Assembly (NCBI GenBank): GCA_034667685.1
Contig: JAXDQU010000071.1
Location: forward strand, 1-42,816
Direction: 5' to 3'
DNA length: 42,816 nucleotides
DNA from: Thermoplasmata archaeon
GTDB lineage: Archaea > Thermoplasmatota > SW-10-69-26 > JACQPN01 > JAJPHT01
The translations under genes and the position numbers were made by a program. Under the pieces are notes generated by a model that had not been told where the DNA came from, ran no database searches, and saw only the letters and a program-made list of their open reading frames with translations. Of the stretch, positions 4,655-12,509 are shown one piece after another. Position 1 is the first letter of the stretch. The number at the start of each line of letters is the position of its first letter.

Positions 4655-7396
4655 ATGGCCCGAGGTCCCCCTCTCGTGCTTGTCGCCCTTTTCCTCCTTC
4701 CGTTGGCCGCGCCGGGCGCCGTCGCCGCGGAGGCCAAGGCGCTCGACTACGGGCTGCCCAACGCGATGGTCGGCGCGGGCGTCGCGCAGGTGGGCGGCTA
4801 CGTCTACGTCCTGGGCGGCCGCCTCTCCGACGGCACGTACAGCAACGGCATCGTGAGGTACGACCCGACCACGGGCGCGAACAGCACGGTGGCCCGTTTC
4901 CCCGACGTCACCATCGCGCCGGGAAGCTCGGAGCGCTACGCCGGGTCGGTCGCGGTCCACGGCTCGAAGATCTACTACTTCGGCGGCGCGACCTCCGTGC
5001 AGGGCACCGTGGGCGATCAGGCCGCGCGCCTGCCCAAGCCGATCCCCGACATCGTCGTCTTCGACACGCAGACGAACAGCGTCCAGATCCTCTCCAGCGA
5101 GGTCGGCAAGACGCCGCAGAACAGCCAGATCCCGGACAACGGCGCGTGGGGCATGGGCGAGGCCACGATCGGCGACACCGCGTACCTCTTCGGCGGCTTC
5201 ACGCTCGACCTCTCGACGTACACGTTCCAGCGCCACGACTGGATCCTCGCGTTCGACATGAGCACCGAGACGATCCGCACGCTCTCCTCGACGCTCCCCT
5301 ACCCGGTGCAGGACGCGGGCGTCGCGTACCTCTCCTCGCCCTCGCCGCGCGTCTACCTCTTCGGCGGCCTGGGCGACAACAACACCGCGAACCTCTGCCC
5401 GGGGCGCTACAACCAGACCACGGGCCAGACCGACCGCCCGGGGCTGTGCATGACCGACGAGATCGTGCGCTGGGATCCGCAGCTCCAGGACGGCGGCGAC
5501 GTCCTCGACGTCAAGCTCCCCTACCGGGTGCAGTTCCCCAGCGCCGGCGTGGCGCGCAGCGACCGCGGCACGCTCGCCTACGTCCTGGGCGGCCTGCTCG
5601 TGGACGGATCGGCCTCGCAGGCGATCCTGGAGTTCAACCCCGGCTCCACGACGCCCCTGCGCACGCTCGCACCCCGGCTCGACCCGGGCCTCTTCGGCAG
5701 CGGCGCGACGGGCGACGGCAACACGCTGACGCTCTGGGGCGGCCGGCTGGGCGAGGCGAACCAGCTCACCAACGCGATCGTGCGGTTCAACCCCAGCCCC
5801 ACCGCGCCCTTCCCGCCCACGAGCCTCATGGCGACGCGCGCCGCGGGCGCGATCCACCTGGAGTGGCAGCCGCCCACGTACGACGGCGACTCGCCCGTGA
5901 CGGGCTATCACGTCTATCGCACGGGCATCGACGGCGTCGAGACGGCGCTCACCACCACGACCGCGCTCTCCTACGACGACGCGGCGACGAAGCCCGGCGC
6001 CAACTACACCTACCGCCTCACCGCGGCCAACACCTACGGCGAGAGCGGCGGCGCGCGCGTGAGCACCGCGACGAGCACGACGCCGCCGGGCCCCGTGCAG
6101 CACTTCAGCGCCTACGCGGGCAACGCGCAGGTGCAGCTCTCGTGGGACGCGCCCTTGGAGAACGGCGGCGCCGACCTCACCGGCTACCACGTGACGTGCA
6201 GCTGCAGCGCGAGCCCGGTGAGCCTCCCCGCGTCCACCACCTCCTACGCGTGGGCCGGCCTCGCCAACGGCGCGAGCTACACGTTCGTCGTGCGCGCCGT
6301 CAACGCCAAGGGCGAAGGCACCGCGTCCCCCACGCTCGCCGCCTCGCCCGCGCCCGTGCCCGACGCGCCCGCCAACGTCGCCGCGCAGCCCGCCGGCAGC
6401 GACGCGGGGAGCGCCAGCGGCGTCGTCGTCTCGTGGACGTCCCCCGCGACGAGCGTCACCAACGTGATCGTCCTGCGCGGCACGACGCCCGACGCGGTGA
6501 GCTTCCCGCTCGCCAACCTCACGCCCGACCAGGTCACCTACACCGACACGCAGGTCGACCACGGCCGCACGTACTACTACGCGCTCGTGAGCCTCAACGC
6601 CGCGGGCCGCAGCCCCCCGTCCAAGCCCGTCTCGGTGAGCCTCGTCGACGTGCCCGCGCCGCCCACCAACGTGCAGGCCCGCGGGCTCGAAGGCCTCGTG
6701 CAGGTCACGTGGCAGGCGCCCAACGACCTGGGTGGCGCGCAGCCCAGCGCGATCACGTACGCCGTCGTGCGCACGAGCCCCACCGGCAGCCAGAAGATCG
6801 TCTCGCCGCCCGACCTCGCCCTGACGGCGTACTCGGACCGCACCGCCACGCCCGGCGTCGCCTACACGTACACCGTGATGACGCAGAACCCGCGCCGCAG
6901 CGCCGCGAGCCTCCCGGCCACGGCGACCGCGCTCGTCGTCTCCAACAAGCCGCCCACCGCGGCCATCGCGGTCCTTCCCGCCATCGCGACCGCGGGCGAT
7001 CCCGTCACGCTCGACGCGAGCCAGTCCGTCGACCCCGACGGCACCCTCGCGCAGTACGCCTTCGACTTCGGCGACGGGTCGGACGTGAAGCTGACCAACC
7101 AGAGCACCGTCACGCACGCCTACGCGACGAACAACACGTACACCGTGAAGGTCGTCGTCACGGACGACCGCGGCAACACCAGCGCCCCCGCCACGGCGCG
7201 CGTCATCATCGGCACGCTCCAGGGGGGCGGCGCGGATGATTCAGGCGGCACGAACGTGGGCTCGCGCCCCGTCACAAGCGTCGGCGACCCGCAGCCCGGC
7301 GCCGGCGCGGGCAAGATCCCCGGCCCCGAGCCGATCCTCGTGGCGCTCGCGGCCCTCGGCCTGGCGCTGGTGACGCGCCGTCACCTCCGCCGGTGA
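4655..7396 (+). CDS. Surface protein: Kelch propeller, tandem fibronectin type III domains, PKD domain, PGF-CTERM-like tail
   Basis: Signal peptide; YVLGG/YLFGG Kelch repeats; W..P..DG.SPVTGY and YTYRLTAAN FN3 motifs; FDFGDG PKD; C-terminus KIPGPEP + TM + RRHLRR. Confidence 0.88.
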   Translation: MARGPPLVLVALFLLPLAAPGAVAAEAKALDYGLPNAMVGAGVAQVGGYVYVLGGRLSDGTYSNGIVRYDPTTGANSTVARFPDVTIAPGSSERYAGSVAVHGSKIYYFGGATSVQGTVGDQAARLPKPIPDIVVFDTQTNSVQILSSEVGKTPQNSQIPDNGAWGMGEATIGDTAYLFGGFTLDLSTYTFQRHDWILAFDMSTETIRTLSSTLPYPVQDAGVAYLSSPSPRVYLFGGLGDNNTANLCPGRYNQTTGQTDRPGLCMTDEIVRWDPQLQDGGDVLDVKLPYRVQFPSAGVARSDRGTLAYVLGGLLVDGSASQAILEFNPGSTTPLRTLAPRLDPGLFGSGATGDGNTLTLWGGRLGEANQLTNAIVRFNPSPTAPFPPTSLMATRAAGAIHLEWQPPTYDGDSPVTGYHVYRTGIDGVETALTTTTALSYDDAATKPGANYTYRLTAANTYGESGGARVSTATSTTPPGPVQHFSAYAGNAQVQLSWDAPLENGGADLTGYHVTCSCSASPVSLPASTTSYAWAGLANGASYTFVVRAVNAKGEGTASPTLAASPAPVPDAPANVAAQPAGSDAGSASGVVVSWTSPATSVTNVIVLRGTTPDAVSFPLANLTPDQVTYTDTQVDHGRTYYYALVSLNAAGRSPPSKPVSVSLVDVPAPPTNVQARGLEGLVQVTWQAPNDLGGAQPSAITYAVVRTSPTGSQKIVSPPDLALTAYSDRTATPGVAYTYTVMTQNPRRSAASLPATATALVVSNKPPTAAIAVLPAIATAGDPVTLDASQSVDPDGTLAQYAFDFGDGSDVKLTNQSTVTHAYATNNTYTVKVVVTDDRGNTSAPATARVIIGTLQGGGADDSGGTNVGSRPVTSVGDPQPGAGAGKIPGPEPILVALAALGLALVTRRHLRR

Positions 7397-7467: not shown

Positions 7468-7758
7468 ATGAAAGCCATCGTCCTCGTCGCCGCGCTCGTG
7501 CTCCCCGCCTTGGCCGGAGCCGCGCTGGCCGGCGCGCCCAGCTCGCCCCCCGACGACAGCGCCGCCGCGTTCGACTTCTCGCAGTTCGCGCCCGGCGCGC
7601 CCGTCTTCTACGTCTTCTGCGCGCAGCACACGACGCTCGCCAACTGCCAGGGCATGACGATCTACCAGGAGAGCAACGGGCTGGGCAAGCTCCAGCACCT
7701 CGGCCTCCAGATCAGCAGCGCCAAGAAGTACGATCCGGACGCCAAGGTCCTGTCCTAG
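7468..7758 (+). CDS. Small secreted protein (ESNGLxxLQ motif)
   Basis: Signal peptide MKAIVLVAALVLPALAGAALA; motif shared with 39517..39762. Confidence 0.7.
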   Translation: MKAIVLVAALVLPALAGAALAGAPSSPPDDSAAAFDFSQFAPGAPVFYVFCAQHTTLANCQGMTIYQESNGLGKLQHLGLQISSAKKYDPDAKVLS

Positions 7759-8168: not shown

Positions 8169-10151
8169 CTAGCCGACGACGGGGGCCTGGATTGCCTCGA
8201 ACGTGAGGCTGCCCGCCACGAGCTTCTGCATGGTCTCCAGCAGCTTCGCCCGTGGTAGGCGCTTCTGCGCCCCCGTGTCGCGCTCGCGCAGCGTGACGGT
8301 GCCGTCGTCCTTCGACTGGTAGTCGATCGTGACGCAGAAGGGCGTGCCCACCTCGTCCTGGCGCGCGTAGCGCCGGCCGATGGCGCCGCCGTCGTCGTAC
8401 GTCGCCGCGAGGCCCGCCATGCGAAGCTCGCGGTCGATCTCGCCCGCCATCGTGTCGAGGCCGTCCTTCGCCATGAGCGGGAAGACGCCGACCTTGACGG
8501 GCGCGACCTGGGGCGCCAGGCGCAGGCTCGTCCACTCCTTCTTGCCCGCGGGGCTCTCCCACGCGCTCTCCAGCACGGCGTAGAAGATGCGGTCGATGCC
8601 GTACGAAGGCTCGACGACGTGCGGGACGTACCACTCGCCCTCGGCGCGCTCCAGCCGCTTCTCGACGCGGTACATGTCGGACGAGAGGCGGTGCGTCTCG
8701 CCGTCGACGGTGATATCAAGGTGCGCGGGGGCCTGCTCGGGCGCCTCCATCGCGCGCAGGGCCTCCGAGATGGCGCCCGCCTTGCCCTTGAACGTGGGGC
8801 CGAGCTTGGTGGGGTTGGGCACGTAGCGGTTGACCTCGACCTCGCGCGGCTCGGCGTAGCGGCGCATCGCGCGGAGCTTCTGGCCGCTGACGCGCTCGTG
8901 CGCCTTGAGGTCGTAGTCGGTGCGGTCCGCGATGCCGACGATCTCGACCCAGCCAAAGCGCGGGCTGAGGAACTCCGCGTCCCACGTGTCGGTGCTGTAG
9001 TGCGCCTTCTCCTCGCGGCCGTGCTGGCGGAACCGGATGATGTCGGCGGGGATGCCGGCGGTCTCCAGGAACTCGCCGGTCAGCGCGATGAAGTACCCGA
9101 GCGCGCCGTTGGCGATGATGCCCTTCGCGACGGCGTCGCCCATGCGCATGCGCTCGGGGCTCGTCGCGTCGCGGTGCAGGAGGTTCAGCTCCTTTCCGGC
9201 GAGGCGCTCGTAGGCGGGCCAGCTCTTCGCCTCGGGGTCGAAGAAGACCTCCGCCTCCATCTGGTGGAACTCGCGCAGGCGCAGCAGGCTCTGGCGCGGG
9301 CTGATCTCGTTGCGGTACGCCTTGCCCACCTGCACCGCGCCGAAGGGGAGCTTCTCGCGGAAGAAGCGGTAGAGCCAGCCGAAGTCCATGAACATGCCCT
9401 GCGCGGTCTCCGGGCGCAGGTAGCCCACGCGGCCGCTGCCCGGGCCCACGGTGGTGCGGAACATCAGGTTGAAGGCGTGGATGTGCGCCGTCTTGATATC
9501 GAGCGGCTTGTTGCACGAGGGGCACTTCACGACGTCCTCGTAGAGCGTCTTGCCGCCCTTGGCGACGCGCACGGTGAGGTGGGTCGCCTGGACGTGCACG
9601 CCCTCGTGCTCGCCGTGGTAGAGGACCTTCTCGTGGAACATGACGGCGTTGCCGTGCAGGAGATCGGTCAAGTTCTCGGGCGAGGGATTGCGGTCCGCCG
9701 ACTCGCGCACCTCCTCGATCTTCTGGAGCAGCGCGTCGGCCAGCGAGCCCGCGTGCGCCTTGCGGATCGCGTCGGAGGCGCTCTCGCCCAGGCGCTTCCA
9801 CTCGTTGCGCACGAGGTGGTCGCCGCGGTTGCCGCTGCCGCACTGCACGCACTCGATGACCGTGTCGGCGAACTTCTCCAGGTGGCCGGAGGCGCGGAAC
9901 ACCTGCTCGGGCGAGATCGTGGGGCACTGGATCTCGGCCATGCCCTCGCCCAGCACGTAGTGGCGGCGCCAGAGGTTCTCGAGGTTCGTCTTCAGCGCCG
10001 CGCCAAGCGGGCCGTAGTCGAAGAAGCCCGCCACGCCGCCGTAGATCTCGTAGCTCGGCTGCAAGTAGCCGCGACGCTTGAGCGTCGCCATCAGTTCCTC
10101 ATGAATGTCGGGGCGGGCCGCGCCGGATTGCGCGGAGGCGGGTGCGGGCAT
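8169..10151 (-). CDS. glyS: Glycine--tRNA ligase, archaeal/eukaryotic alpha2 type
   Basis: YEIYGGVAGFFDYGPLG, YLRPETAQGMF, FHQMEAE, HVVEPSYGIDR, IGRRYARQDEVGTPFCVTID. Confidence 0.96.
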   Translation of the reverse strand: MPAPASAQSGAARPDIHEELMATLKRRGYLQPSYEIYGGVAGFFDYGPLGAALKTNLENLWRRHYVLGEGMAEIQCPTISPEQVFRASGHLEKFADTVIECVQCGSGNRGDHLVRNEWKRLGESASDAIRKAHAGSLADALLQKIEEVRESADRNPSPENLTDLLHGNAVMFHEKVLYHGEHEGVHVQATHLTVRVAKGGKTLYEDVVKCPSCNKPLDIKTAHIHAFNLMFRTTVGPGSGRVGYLRPETAQGMFMDFGWLYRFFREKLPFGAVQVGKAYRNEISPRQSLLRLREFHQMEAEVFFDPEAKSWPAYERLAGKELNLLHRDATSPERMRMGDAVAKGIIANGALGYFIALTGEFLETAGIPADIIRFRQHGREEKAHYSTDTWDAEFLSPRFGWVEIVGIADRTDYDLKAHERVSGQKLRAMRRYAEPREVEVNRYVPNPTKLGPTFKGKAGAISEALRAMEAPEQAPAHLDITVDGETHRLSSDMYRVEKRLERAEGEWYVPHVVEPSYGIDRIFYAVLESAWESPAGKKEWTSLRLAPQVAPVKVGVFPLMAKDGLDTMAGEIDRELRMAGLAATYDDGGAIGRRYARQDEVGTPFCVTIDYQSKDDGTVTLRERDTGAQKRLPRAKLLETMQKLVAGSLTFEAIQAPVVG

Positions 10152-10190
10152 GCGGCGTGGCGAGGGCGCCACGCCTTGAAAAAGATAGGC

Positions 10191-10421
10191 TCAGAGGGGG
10201 CTGTTCTGAACGCACGCGCCGCCGGGCGCGTCGGCATCGAGGCTTTGCGTGACGCAGACGAGGTCCGCGCGGCACGCCGAGTCGATGGCGATGCCCAGGC
10301 AGACGCCGACGGGACCCGCGTCGCAGCCGGAGCCGCCCGCGGGCGTCATGCACGCCGAAGCCGAAGGCGCGAGGACGAAGACAGAGCCGAGCACGACGAG
10401 GGCGAGGAGAAGGGCGCGCAC
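10191..10421 (-). CDS. Small Cys-rich secreted peptide (6 Cys in mature part)
   Basis: GTG start preceded by GAGGTG SD-like motif; signal VRALLLALVVLGSVFVLAPSASA|C. Confidence 0.75.
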   Translation of the reverse strand: MRALLLALVVLGSVFVLAPSASACMTPAGGSGCDAGPVGVCLGIAIDSACRADLVCVTQSLDADAPGGACVQNSPL

Positions 10422-10431
10422 GTCCAACACC

Positions 10432-10809
10432 TCAGAAGCACTCCGTCGTGTAGCAGGGGTCGGGCACGCAGATCGAGCGCGCGTTGCCGATCACGCAGAT
10501 GAGGTTCGGCCCGCAGGTCGCGAAGTCCTGCTCCGTGCAGACCTGGAACGACTCCGCGACGACGTTGACGCACGTCGGGTTGTCGATGAAGGCGAGCGTC
10601 GGGTGGTTGACGCAGACGAGCCCCGGGCACGTGGGCTGGGTCGCGCGGACGCACGCGCCCACGGGGATCGCGTAGCAGGGCATCGCGCCCACGCCGCAGC
10701 CGGGCGGACAGGCGGAGCCGGGGGACTCGGGGCAGGGCGAGGCCGACGCGCCCGGCAGGAGCGCGACGACGGAGGCGGCGAGAGCAAGGGCGAGAAGAAG
10801 GGAGCGCAT
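10432..10809 (-). CDS. Cys-rich secreted peptide (14 Cys in mature part)
   Basis: Signal MRSLLLALALAASVVALLPGASA|; ends CVPDPCYTTECF; GGAGG upstream. Confidence 0.8.
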   Translation of the reverse strand: MRSLLLALALAASVVALLPGASASPCPESPGSACPPGCGVGAMPCYAIPVGACVRATQPTCPGLVCVNHPTLAFIDNPTCVNVVAESFQVCTEQDFATCGPNLICVIGNARSICVPDPCYTTECF

Positions 10810-10829
10810 GGGTCGATCCTCCGGGAGGC

Positions 10830-11051
10830 TCACTCGATGCAACGCGTCGTGCAGGGCGGGTACTCGACGTAGACGGTGCGGCACTCGGTGATGGTTCCCG
10901 CCTGCACGCAGACCGTACAAAGCTCGTTCGCGTTGAACGGGTTGCAGACGGGCAGCGTGCAGTACTGGATCGTGCACGCCTGGGCCGAGGGGGCCACGGT
11001 CACGAAGGCGAGAGCAGCGAGGCAGGCGGCAAGGAGCAGCGCGATTCTCAT
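10830..11051 (-). CDS. Small Cys-rich secreted peptide (8 Cys in mature part)
   Basis: Signal MRIALLLAACLAALAFVTVAPSAQA|CTIQYC...PPCTTRCIE. Confidence 0.78.
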   Translation of the reverse strand: MRIALLLAACLAALAFVTVAPSAQACTIQYCTLPVCNPFNANELCTVCVQAGTITECRTVYVEYPPCTTRCIE

Positions 11052-11134
11052 GGGGGAACCTCTGCGGCGCGGATCCGCGCTCGTGCGGAAACCGGTTTCG
11101 CGGGCGCGCCGGATGGGGTGCAGGCGGCCCAGCC

Positions 11135-11326
11135 CTACGGCAGGACCCCGTCGGTGATGCAGCGCCAGACGAAGCCGCCGTGGATGCCTTGGCCGCCGTA
11201 ATAGACCGGGATGCAGACGCAGCCGACCTGCGTGGGCGAGGTGCACGTCGCGGAGGCGGTGGGGGCGACGTTGGCGATGGCGAGCACGGAACCGAGCACG
11301 ACAAGGGCGAGGAGGATGGCACGCAT
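11135..11326 (-). CDS. Small Cys-rich secreted peptide (4 Cys in mature part)
   Basis: Signal MRAILLALVVLGSVLAIANVAPTASA|TC, nearly the same leader as 10191..10421. Confidence 0.75.
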   Translation of the reverse strand: MRAILLALVVLGSVLAIANVAPTASATCTSPTQVGCVCIPVYYGGQGIHGGFVWRCITDGVLP

Positions 11327-11367
11327 GCGCCCCGAGCACGCTCCCGGCCGATCCAAATGCCTTGCGT

Positions 11368-12066
11368 CTACGGAGGGTTGCGGAACATCACGAGCATCTC
11401 CGCGTCGTCGGGGCGCATCGGCCGCCGCTCGTACGCGCCCGTCACGCCGCCCCAGAGCGCCTCGTGGCGGAAGCCGGCCTCGCGCCCCATGGCGATGACC
11501 TCGCGCGGCGTGAAGGCGCGCGTCGCCAAGGAGAAACGCCGGACCCGACCCTGGGGATCGGCGAGGTCGTAGCCGTCGAGCATGACGTTGGTCGCCGGGT
11601 CGAACGCGGGGTCCGCGCTCATGGCGAACACGCTCATCGCGGAGAGCAGGAACGGCGCGCCGGGCGCCAGGCACGCGCGGACGCTGCGCAGCATCGCGAC
11701 GTGCGCGGCATCGTCGGGCAGCAGGCCGAACGCCCCCTCGCAGACGGAGAACGCGCCCGCGAACCGGCCGCGGAACGGCAGCGCGCGCGCCTCGGCCTGG
11801 ACCCAGTCACCGCGCTGACGCGCGGCGACTGACAAAAGCCCGCGCGAGAGGTCCGCGCCCACGACGCGCCAGGGCAGGAGCGGCTCGTGCCGGCCCAGCC
11901 CGCACGCGACGTCGAGCACGAGCGCGCCCTTCGGGAGCCCGAGCGCCTCCACGAGGAACTTCGCCTCCTGGCGCGTGCCCTTCGTGTACGGGAACCGCAG
12001 GTAGTTCTCGCGGACGTGGTCGCCCAGCGCGCGGAAGGCGAGACCGCTCTCGAACGGGTCGTCCAC
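11368..12066 (-). CDS. Class I SAM-dependent methyltransferase
   Basis: VLDVACGLGRH motif I, VVGADLS motif II. Confidence 0.85.
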   Translation of the reverse strand: MDDPFESGLAFRALGDHVRENYLRFPYTKGTRQEAKFLVEALGLPKGALVLDVACGLGRHEPLLPWRVVGADLSRGLLSVAARQRGDWVQAEARALPFRGRFAGAFSVCEGAFGLLPDDAAHVAMLRSVRACLAPGAPFLLSAMSVFAMSADPAFDPATNVMLDGYDLADPQGRVRRFSLATRAFTPREVIAMGREAGFRHEALWGGVTGAYERRPMRPDDAEMLVMFRNPP

Positions 12067-12088
12067 GCCGCGGCAGCCGCCACCATAC

Positions 12089-12098
12089 TCTTTAATAC
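12089..12098 (+). promoter_or_regulatory. TATA-like box upstream of rpl44e
   Basis: TCTTTAATAC AT island in ~70% GC background, ~130 bp upstream of the ATG. Confidence 0.55.
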
Positions 12099-12224
12099 AG
12101 GCACCCTCGTGGCAGGAATCCCGCCCGGCCAGGGCAGGCCCCCCGAGGGGAGATCCGTTGCACGGCTTCGGCCGTCCGGAATCGCAGGCCTGACGCGATC
12201 GAGCAGGACAAGGAGAATCACCGA

Positions 12225-12509
12225 ATGCTTCGCCCCCGAACGATCCAGCGCTACTGCCCGAAGTGCAAGAAGCACACGGCGCAGGAAGTCGAGCGCGTCA
12301 AGAAGCGCAAGGCGTCCGAACTCAAGAAGGGTCAGAGGCGCTTCCGCCGCGTGACCGCGGGTTACCGCGGCTTCCCGCGCCCGAAGCCCGAGGGCCGCGA
12401 GAAGGCCACGAAGCGCGTCGCGCTCCGCTACCGCTGCAAGACCTGCAAGAAGGCCACGCAGCCCGCGGCGCAGCGCGCCAAGAAGTTCGAGCTCAAGGAG
12501 GCTGCCTGA
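12225..12509 (+). CDS. rpl44e: 50S ribosomal protein L44e
   Basis: YCPKCKKHT ... [16 protein letters not shown] ... [15 protein letters not shown]; precedes rps27e. Confidence 0.96.

Follow-up and report, generated by a model that had tools for sequence, protein, structure and literature searches.

Known archaeocins amount to a handful of halocins and sulfolobicins, according to the accessible part of PMC3387779. Halocin C8, as described in the available portion of a preprint (bioRxiv 10.64898/2026.07.27.741052), is cut from a 283-amino-acid (aa) precursor that is exported by the twin-arginine translocation (Tat) route and includes an immunity protein; its gene adjoins regulator and ABC transporter genes, and its domain model is TIGR04449. 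In eukaryotes, the small proteins rich in cysteine that are secreted (SSCPs) by fungi and oomycetes and the NCR and defensin-like peptides of plants join a signal peptide to a short mature portion whose cysteines are even in number, and the available sections of PMC7170778 and PMC7230169 describe tens to hundreds of lineage-specific genes, often orphan and in tandem, with fast turnover and with functions that are obscure in most members. The same description fits the gene repertoire reported here. The window, by which we mean the whole analyzed stretch of 42,816 nucleotides (nt) on contig JAXDQU010000071.1 of a Thermoplasmata archaeon (assembly GCA_034667685.1), carries a tandem array of four small genes, A to D, at positions 10191 to 11326 of the minus strand. 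The array matters since the ways in which archaea act on their neighbors are poorly understood. The explanation that we favor overall, and consider likely, is that these real genes encode Sec-exported, disulfide-bonded mini-proteins from an expanding repertoire, which would serve as extracellular binders.

Four small genes and the repertoire to which they belong

All four genes were found on the minus strand where the first-pass annotation had placed them, each with a signal peptide ending in AxA, and its cysteine counts for the mature parts (4, 8, 14, and 6 for A to D) were reproduced. The genes are listed below together with their signal peptides and their GC content at third codon positions (GC3).

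11135..11326, minus strand: gene A, ATG start, 63 aa, GC3 0.91
11249-11326, minus strand: signal peptide of gene A, 26 aa, ending ...APTASA
10830..11051, minus strand: gene B, ATG start, 73 aa, GC3 0.88
10977-11051, minus strand: signal peptide of gene B, 25 aa, ending ...APSAQA
10432..10809, minus strand: gene C, ATG start, 125 aa, GC3 0.95
10741-10809, minus strand: signal peptide of gene C, 23 aa, ending ...LPGASA
10191..10421, minus strand: gene D, GTG start, 76 aa, GC3 0.88
10353-10421, minus strand: signal peptide of gene D, 23 aa, ending ...APSASA

Each precursor starts with MR, followed by a hydrophobic stretch of 17 to 20 residues and the AxA site; inspection of the four sequences revealed neither a twin arginine nor a second hydrophobic segment. 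The mature parts comprise 37 aa with a net charge of 0 and the C terminus GVLP (A), 48 aa with a charge of -2 (B), 102 aa with a charge of -5 (C), and 53 aa with a charge of -4 and the C terminus NSPL (D), and Lys is absent from all of them. In B and D, a cysteine directly follows AxA (SAQA-C and SASA-C). The motif GGAGGA is found 7 nt 5' of gene C, and GAGGTG is found 5' of gene D. The open reading frame (ORF) lister had started gene D three codons earlier, at 10430; we placed the start at 10421 because strain X3, known from a soil metagenome of another study, reads ATG there.

Codon composition and the comparison with X3 confirmed that A to D are real genes, beyond chance. GC3 was 0.88 to 0.95 in the four frames, compared to 0.54 to 0.62 where the long ORFs extend further upstream, and reached 0.97 and 0.95 in the flanking genes for glycyl-tRNA synthetase (GlyRS) and a methyltransferase. 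Other overlapping ORFs showed a GC3 of 0.57 to 0.82 with one exception (10491-10787, minus strand), whose GC content peaks at codon position 2 (0.96), which coincides with the third codon position of gene C. Contigs of X3 cover the array at 97 to 98% identity. Of the 21 substitutions on two contigs, at least 13 were seen (12 within genes and 1 intergenic); the 12 listed inside A to D are nine synonymous third positions, one I-to-V and one V-to-I exchange, and the GTG-to-ATG change of the gene D start. Both differences listed for gene A are synonymous, and gene B displayed four synonymous changes and one V-to-I exchange. The array genes are under purifying selection within the population. Genes A, B, and C are nested in longer ORFs of 179, 169, and 296 aa, so that three of the four are indeed hidden, as the first-pass annotation had said. 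The mis-annotation that it expected has not occurred: public collections already list the short versions, with C entered as a 125-aa protein and A and B present letter for letter in the ESM Atlas.

The host genome (G000) was then screened with a rule that asked for a start codon, K or R, no fewer than 12 hydrophobic residues, and a subsequent part with at least 4 cysteines (at least 7%), at a GC3 of at least 0.82. This rule matched 87 ORFs, and 90 when its cleavage criterion was varied slightly, compared to 2 in the reversed sequence; the repertoire makes up about 2.5% of the genes of the genome. Cysteine counts were even in 80 of the 87 (85 of the 90), and cysteine accounted for 10.5% of mature residues versus 1.2% in background ORFs. 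The mature parts are also rich in Thr, Val, Pro, and Gly. A tandem arrangement was observed for 32 of the 87 genes, which form 10 same-strand clusters of 2 to 5 genes with gaps of mostly 0 to 20 nt, and the window array is one of three four-gene clusters. When Pfam was run on 20 of the 87 paralogs, only sub-threshold rows beginning in the signal peptide were returned (Myticin-prepro, Defensin_propep, and IlvGEDA_leader). Five relatives were read as samples of 299 to 400 kb rather than as whole genomes, with the following results.

G003, same genus: 6 small Cys-rich ORFs in a 365-kb sample
G007, same family: 0 small Cys-rich ORFs in the sample
G009, same order: 0 small Cys-rich ORFs in the sample (1 if the GC3 filter is dropped)
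G015, same class: 0 small Cys-rich ORFs in the sample
G024, same phylum: 0 small Cys-rich ORFs in the sample

Two further regularities were observed in the repertoire. The C-terminal endings -LP, -LA, -LL, or -PL occur in 25 of the 87 genes (including A and D) versus 131 of 3,576 background ORFs (3.7%), an odds ratio of 10.6 for a motif that was chosen post hoc; outside homologs display similar C termini (...PTLA, ...DVLP, and ...FGLP). Such an ending may act as a tail for sorting or processing at the C terminus. In addition, GGGCACA(A)CCCC or a one-base variant stands directly 5' of the ATG of at least 9 of the 87 genes, and carriers include C2:32908, C16:3424, C17:19180, C28:21582, C34:37057, C39:38928, C63:14177, and C63:14740. 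A ...CCCCC-ATG ending is present upstream of many further Cys-rich genes, gene B of the window among them, and GAAAGCCGTTGC.CCC recurs at C79:93272 and in three C89 array genes, about 40 to 55 nt upstream. These shared upstream motifs may represent a promoter, a 5' leader, or a regulon.

Leaders, cores, and a recurring cysteine module

The leaders of A and D had been described as nearly identical and their cores as unrelated. The first statement held: the A-D pair shares 13 of 16 residues, with an identical run of 10 residues, and ranked first of the 3,741 pairs among the 87 leaders, being the only pair with a shared run of 9 or more. At the DNA level, the leaders agree at 34 of 42 nt, and at 81% over 52 nt. 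The second statement stood in part. The likeness extends about 15 residues into the mature part (BLASTP, 23 of 41 identical, E of 0.006), and the likeness of leaders and early mature parts indicates that A and D are likely local duplicates. Furthermore, the D core aligns to a module of C, as set out below, while the A and B cores are those without a detectable relative.

Gene C consists of three pieces: the N-terminal one has 4 cysteines, a 4-Cys 'CPGLVCV' unit follows, and a 6-Cys module, which was delimited by alignments, forms the C terminus.

10435..10557, minus strand: 6-Cys module of gene C, 41 aa, C-x7-C-x5-C-V-x8-C-V-P-D-P-C-x4-C

The alignments gave the module consensus GVCTE-x4-C-x4-L-x-C-V-x8-C-V-P-D-P-C-x4-C. 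On this basis, we defined a 'GVCTE...CVPDPC' family by a signal peptide and at least one copy of C-x6-7-C-x5-6-C-V-x7-9-C-[VI]-x-D-P-C-x4-5-C. Gene C belongs to it, with all six cysteines aligned with those of the paralogs and of a gene of G003, and clusters with six paralogs (BLASTP E of 3e-6 to 3e-4), which makes seven members in all. A word-based protein search with gene C returned only gene C itself. In many members, a related 4-Cys 'C...CPGxxCV...C' unit precedes the module. Residues 13 to 48 and 86 to 125 of gene C match one gene at the corresponding site of G003 (E of 8e-19), and residues 49 to 81 match the neighboring G003 gene (70% identical, E of 8e-14). Judged from these alignments, gene C appears to be a mosaic.

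In gene D, positions 10194-10313 encode residues that line up with the first four cysteines of the module; the LVCV strand is present and DPC-x4-C is absent. Against a module profile built without D, gene D scored 15.8 bits, which none of 1,000 shuffles reached, and was the best non-training match of the 87. Partial module members ending in CVPDIS exist as well. The scores of gene A (3.6 bits) and gene B (-2.0 bits) were reached by 79 and 94 of 1,000 shuffles, respectively. For these two genes, convincing relatives were not found in the genomes of 20 relatives, and the best ESM Atlas scores (0.80 to 0.85) were under the lead level of 0.9; the ESM Atlas models of A and B were poor (predicted local distance difference test [pLDDT] of about 0.5). 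Their cores are orphans.

A module profile searched with HMMER against 1.84 billion cluster representatives matched 41 proteins at an E of ≤0.001, 7 of them at ≤1e-10. All of the 38 outside homologs inspected have Sec-like N termini and one to five modules, and they mix the module with at least two other Cys-rich module types. Two of the three remaining proteins are about 1,220 aa long, with EGF repeats (1,222 aa) in one and fn3 repeats in the other, and match the profile partially. Among 41 relatives' genomes, the module was detected in 5 at an E of ≤0.01. At an E of ≤1e-4, three genomes carried it, out of 21 searched in the class and 401 in the phylum, with 13 to 14 matches in G000, 10 in G003, and 1 in G012. 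A profile scan of genome contigs with a narrow alignment recovered a single true locus, L064, and a chance match of 13 residues. L064 (JAJPHT010000030.1) encodes a two-unit family member of 110 aa; P0032 is a 115-aa version with an earlier start. Its record is titled 'Proteobacteria bacterium', and this label looks wrong: the genome encodes ribosomal protein L44e, which was restricted to archaea among the control genomes. We also observed the further module types 'VCVAG.TAPSCY.GHDVCV...VP.C' and 'CTE..G.G.AGAVC.V.GK.VGPVATC..C' mixed with the CVPDPC module, for example, in P0003, P0010, P0013, and P0041 and in G000 at C28:21208-21582 and C78:51909-53274. The mixtures suggest a combinatorial module system.

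Structure prediction, which the first-pass annotation had proposed as a check, succeeded for the module and not for the whole protein. AlphaFold2 modeled mature C (40 aligned sequences) at a mean pLDDT of 62.7, with the N-terminal 60 residues being poor and the module reaching 76 to 88. The module alone (35 sequences) was predicted at a mean pLDDT of 89.8 as three strands and a short helix. Foldseek searches with the whole-C and module models gave no match at an E of ≤0.001. With VIA, no match at a Z of ≥2 was obtained for the whole-C model, and the best Z for the module was 2.0, in a search that has little power at 41 residues. At that size, these results from predicted models would say little either way about a new fold. 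A link among PDB sequences to the hairpin of mamba 'intestinal toxin 1' was rejected, since the best match of the module profile had a nonsignificant E of 0.13.

Genomic site and proposed export and role

The window encodes ribosomal proteins L44e and S27e, eIF-2 alpha, Nop10, PAC2, and four archaeal type IV pilin-like genes, from which we conclude that the host is an archaeon. Its genome comprises 3.48 Mb in 124 contigs (99% complete, about 70% GC) and is of soil origin. The array, the methyltransferase, and GlyRS are all encoded on one strand; the flanking genes and the spacers are as follows.

11368..12066, minus strand: class I S-adenosylmethionine (SAM)-dependent methyltransferase, upstream flank (Pfam Methyltransf_25 and Methyltransf_11)
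11052..11134, minus strand: A-B spacer, 83 nt, the sole long gap in the array
10152..10190, minus strand: D-GlyRS spacer, 39 nt between the gene D stop and the GlyRS start codon (10151)
8169..10151, minus strand: GlyRS, downstream flank (Pfam tRNA-synt_2b and HGTP_anticodon)

GlyRS, the start codon of which was set from the N termini of relatives, is 65 to 86% identical in five relatives; it is a conserved housekeeping gene and not part of the system. In G001 and G002, of the same genus, the methyltransferase adjoins GlyRS with zero genes between them. The same-genus genome G003, with the most similar GlyRS, carries two Cys-rich genes at the site compared to four here. In G004, the array was not seen at the site, where the methyltransferase was not cleanly called. 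Since the site is empty in G001 and G002 and holds two genes in G003, the array is a recent, variable insertion, placed between these two flanking genes in the closest relatives alone. The methyltransferase is not a partner or tailoring enzyme of the array, because it also stands beside GlyRS in the array-free G001 and G002.

The remaining gaps in the array measure 20 nt (B-C) and 10 nt (C-D). The A-B spacer contains two perfect palindromes, GAAACCGGTTTC (11088-11099) and GCGCGGATCCGCGC (11067-11080), which could be an operator, a hairpin, or chance. A T-rich box (CTATCTTTTTCAA on the minus strand) in the D-GlyRS spacer might act as a TATA box or a terminator. An Rfam search of 9500-12500 gave no match at an E of ≤1. 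Elsewhere in the window, four tandem, near-identical type IV pilin-like genes of 160 to 166 aa with the class III signal MKANQ...AVSPVIAVILMVAITVVLAATVYVWV are located at 113-2379 on the plus strand, and Pilin_N of Pfam matches the second of them. The 897-aa product of 4703-7396 (plus strand), which combines Kelch repeats with two fn3 domains and one PKD domain, is probably a surface protein. A 96-aa signal-peptide protein (7468-7758, plus strand) had no Pfam match and failed the Cys-rich rule.

We propose that A to D would be transcribed together, or as A plus B-C-D, and that each small precursor would be exported via the Sec translocon and cleaved after AxA by signal peptidase I, in line with the form of archaeal Sec and signal peptidase I substrates given in the accessible part of PMC3387779. 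Folding outside the cell would yield compact mini-proteins with 2, 4, 7, and 3 disulfide bonds (A, B, C, and D), full bonding being inferred from the parity and conservation of the cysteines. The products would be released or loosely held; release is suggested by the lack of a membrane anchor. Growth of the repertoire would come from local duplication (as in the A and D leaders), from modules of about 40 residues being reused and shuffled (as in C, D, and the genes of G003), and from cores that diverge fast. The most likely role of the mini-proteins would then be that of protease-resistant extracellular binders against or towards other organisms, be it as inhibitor, toxin, receptor-blocking, or defence proteins. 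We regard an antagonistic or defensive role of the array products as possible but tentative: by analogy, small, stable, hypervariable, and lineage-restricted secreted proteins in tandem typically meet other organisms. Their negative charge makes a cationic, membrane-breaking mode unlikely and favors specific binding as an inhibitor, toxin, blocker, or decoy. It is rather doubtful that a small group of soil archaea has acquired a eukaryote-style combinatorial arsenal of about ninety unmodified, disulfide-rich, Sec-exported mini-proteins built from shuffled modules of no known fold, with these acting as toxins, inhibitors, or receptor blockers in conflicts with neighboring microbes or viruses and forming a new class of archaeocins and the first archaeal counterpart of venoms or effectors.

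Several observations weigh against the favored explanation. The signal peptides were called by the rule and from what is established about archaeal substrates of signal peptidase I (accessible part of PMC3387779). An extracytoplasmic disulfide oxidase was not found in the genome, nor was a VKOR, and three DsbA-family matches, one of which is the only Thioredoxin_4 match, had no signal peptide by eye. The cysteine directly after AxA in B and D leaves room for lipid anchoring. Negative net charges in 82 of the 87 mature parts (median -4) fit poorly with classical antimicrobial peptides; the background ORFs were left out of the charge comparison because noncoding extensions are among their sequence. 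Pfam on the neighboring genes revealed no immunity, transporter, or regulator gene beside A to D, and none of the RNA runs searched for the array stretch contains the array. Finally, G001 had two weak module matches and G002 and G004 had none (86 to 88% complete each), and the repertoire may be narrower than the genus because three of the four same-genus genomes have few or no matches. Independently of these points, two of the DsbA-family genes (C76:11715-12245 and C102:8537-9115) were observed within about 3 kb of Cys-rich genes (C76:13177-13491 and C102:5603-5980).

Among the alternatives, the mini-proteins could be components of the cell's own surface or matrix, serving adhesion, cohesion, or coating of the envelope or pili. 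The short tail shared by 25 of the 87 genes, A and D included (3.7% in the background), might direct sorting or attachment, the anionic products have a high content of Thr, Val, Pro, and Gly, and the window also contains the four pilin-like genes and the large Kelch/fn3/PKD surface protein. However, envelope proteins are usually conserved within families, whereas the array is absent at the site in two congeners and from the samples of four distant relatives; moreover, no PGF-CTERM-like segment or transmembrane anchor is present, and the tail motif was defined after the data had been seen. We therefore consider a surface role unlikely. That B and D are lipoproteins, anchored by a lipid-modified N-terminal cysteine, is quite improbable. 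The lipobox consensus has Leu, Val, or Ile at position -3, where both have Ala, and B has Gln at -2; lipidation of the first cysteine would also leave 7 and 5 cysteines, against the even counts of 80 of the 87 genes. In favor of anchoring are the ...SAQA-C and ...SASA-C junctions themselves, and archaea make lipobox-bearing proteins, according to the accessible part of PMC3387779. We see very little likelihood in a function as extracellular metal-binding or redox-buffering peptides, as the cysteine content of 10.5% and the soil setting might suggest: metallothionein-type CxxC or CC runs are lacking apart from one CVC in A, the even cysteine numbers and the conserved hydrophobics and Pro between cysteines point to a folded disulfide core, and the module is modeled as a beta-rich domain at a pLDDT of 89.8.

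It is highly improbable that A to D are bacteriocin-type precursors or ribosomally synthesized and post-translationally modified peptides (RiPPs), in which a dedicated enzyme or transporter would recognize a conserved leader and the core would be modified. In favor of this, conservation of the A and D leaders clearly exceeds the background, and a methyltransferase is encoded next door. However, all four leaders are fully Sec-like (basic N terminus, 17 to 20 hydrophobic residues, and AxA) and of a form common to the 87 to 90 genes with unrelated cores; the only neighbors are GlyRS and a generic SAM methyltransferase that also accompanies GlyRS in the array-free congeners. Among the 13 of about 50 window genes that were scanned, we found no radical SAM, YcaO, or lanthipeptide synthetase protein, no peptidase, and no ABC exporter, and cores of 37 to 102 aa with even cysteine numbers fit plain oxidative folding. 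Chance ORFs in GC-rich DNA, or pseudogenes in decay, might be suspected from the very small size of the genes, the lack of relatives of A and B, and the many long open frames of GC-rich DNA, but the GC3 signal, the mainly synonymous X3 differences, 90 rule matches versus 2 in the reversed sequence, and homologs of C and D in other genomes allow this explanation to be set aside for practical purposes.

Comparison with described systems

We did not find an archaeal report of such a repertoire in the full-text literature, a search that did not extend to subscription journals and supplements. A match to a characterized family, which the first-pass annotation had allowed for, did not emerge from Pfam, NCBIfam, PDB sequences, or fold searches; the NCBIfam and Pfam scans of A to D gave nothing above the cutoff, and no conotoxin family was matched in Pfam. 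The array lies outside RiPP precursors, defensins, halocin C8, and EGF, as each of these fails in at least one tested feature. The annotation had likened the array to defensins, conotoxins, and RiPP precursors. The conotoxin-like combination of a conserved signal and a diversifying core, seen in the A-D pair, was borne out in part, and the array resembles conotoxin or defensin-like families in their evolution by duplication. The RiPP and defensin readings remained unsupported because the leaders are ordinary export leaders, modifying enzymes are lacking nearby, and the peptides are neutral to anionic. For defensins, the sole Pfam row at an E of ≤10 was Myticin-prepro for B, which stayed below threshold (10.5 bits, cutoff of 28.5), and A, C, and D gave nothing; net charges of 0, -2, -5, and -4 without any Lys differ from those of the cationic defensins. 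Defensins, which have a cysteine-stabilized alpha-beta or a beta-defensin fold, were also absent among the Foldseek and VIA rows for the C module, the only well-modeled part, in searches that are weak at 41 residues.

EGF domains have 1-3, 2-4, and 5-6 disulfides, and their spacing after the fourth cysteine is x1-C-x8-C, whereas the module has x4-C-x4-C. No Pfam EGF match was obtained for C and D at an E of ≤10, or for 16 short homologs and two G003 genes at an E of ≤1, and EGF-family rows in Foldseek (TGF-alpha, epiregulin, and neuregulin) appeared only at an E of 5 to 10, with a best VIA Z of 2.0. The module profile weakly matches the 1,222-aa multi-EGF protein via its last 17 positions. Like EGF-like domains and further small repeat domains rich in disulfides, among them those of secreted cysteine-rich repeat proteins (SCREPs; PMC6262176), the array module comprises about 40 residues, 6 cysteines, and a central beta-hairpin, and it occurs singly or in 2 to 5 tandem copies within secreted proteins. 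Halocin C8 and microhalocins are likewise archaeal, secreted, Cys-rich, small, and stable, and act against competitors, as far as the available portions of PMC3387779 and bioRxiv 10.64898/2026.07.27.741052 describe them. The array precursors differ in being of Sec type, with no twin arginine, and 63 to 125 aa long rather than long and immunity carrying, without regulator or transporter neighbors, and an NCBIfam scan of A to D at an E of ≤10 did not return TIGR04449.

A repertoire without a known family, which changes fast between close relatives and contains a module without a structural match, points to unexplored extracellular biology in Archaea. The proteins are short enough to be synthesized or expressed, so that binding targets are directly testable, and the mini-proteins may offer new disulfide-rich scaffolds.

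The eukaryotic SSCP and NCR families are folded in the endoplasmic reticulum, whereas the array is archaeal and its products would cross the cell membrane by Sec export; Pfam and Foldseek revealed no relation between them in sequence or fold. Many NCR peptides and defensins are cationic, whereas the array products are anionic. Conotoxin superfamilies retain a conserved signal and acquire a hypervariable Cys core after duplication, which is the pattern of the A-D pair. The array differs in that it has no pro-region and is not an animal venom gene, and the likeness is confined to one pair, the other leaders being merely Sec-like. By analogy, then, the array appears to work like the eukaryotic families of small secreted Cys-rich proteins, with the A-D pair resembling the conotoxin superfamilies.

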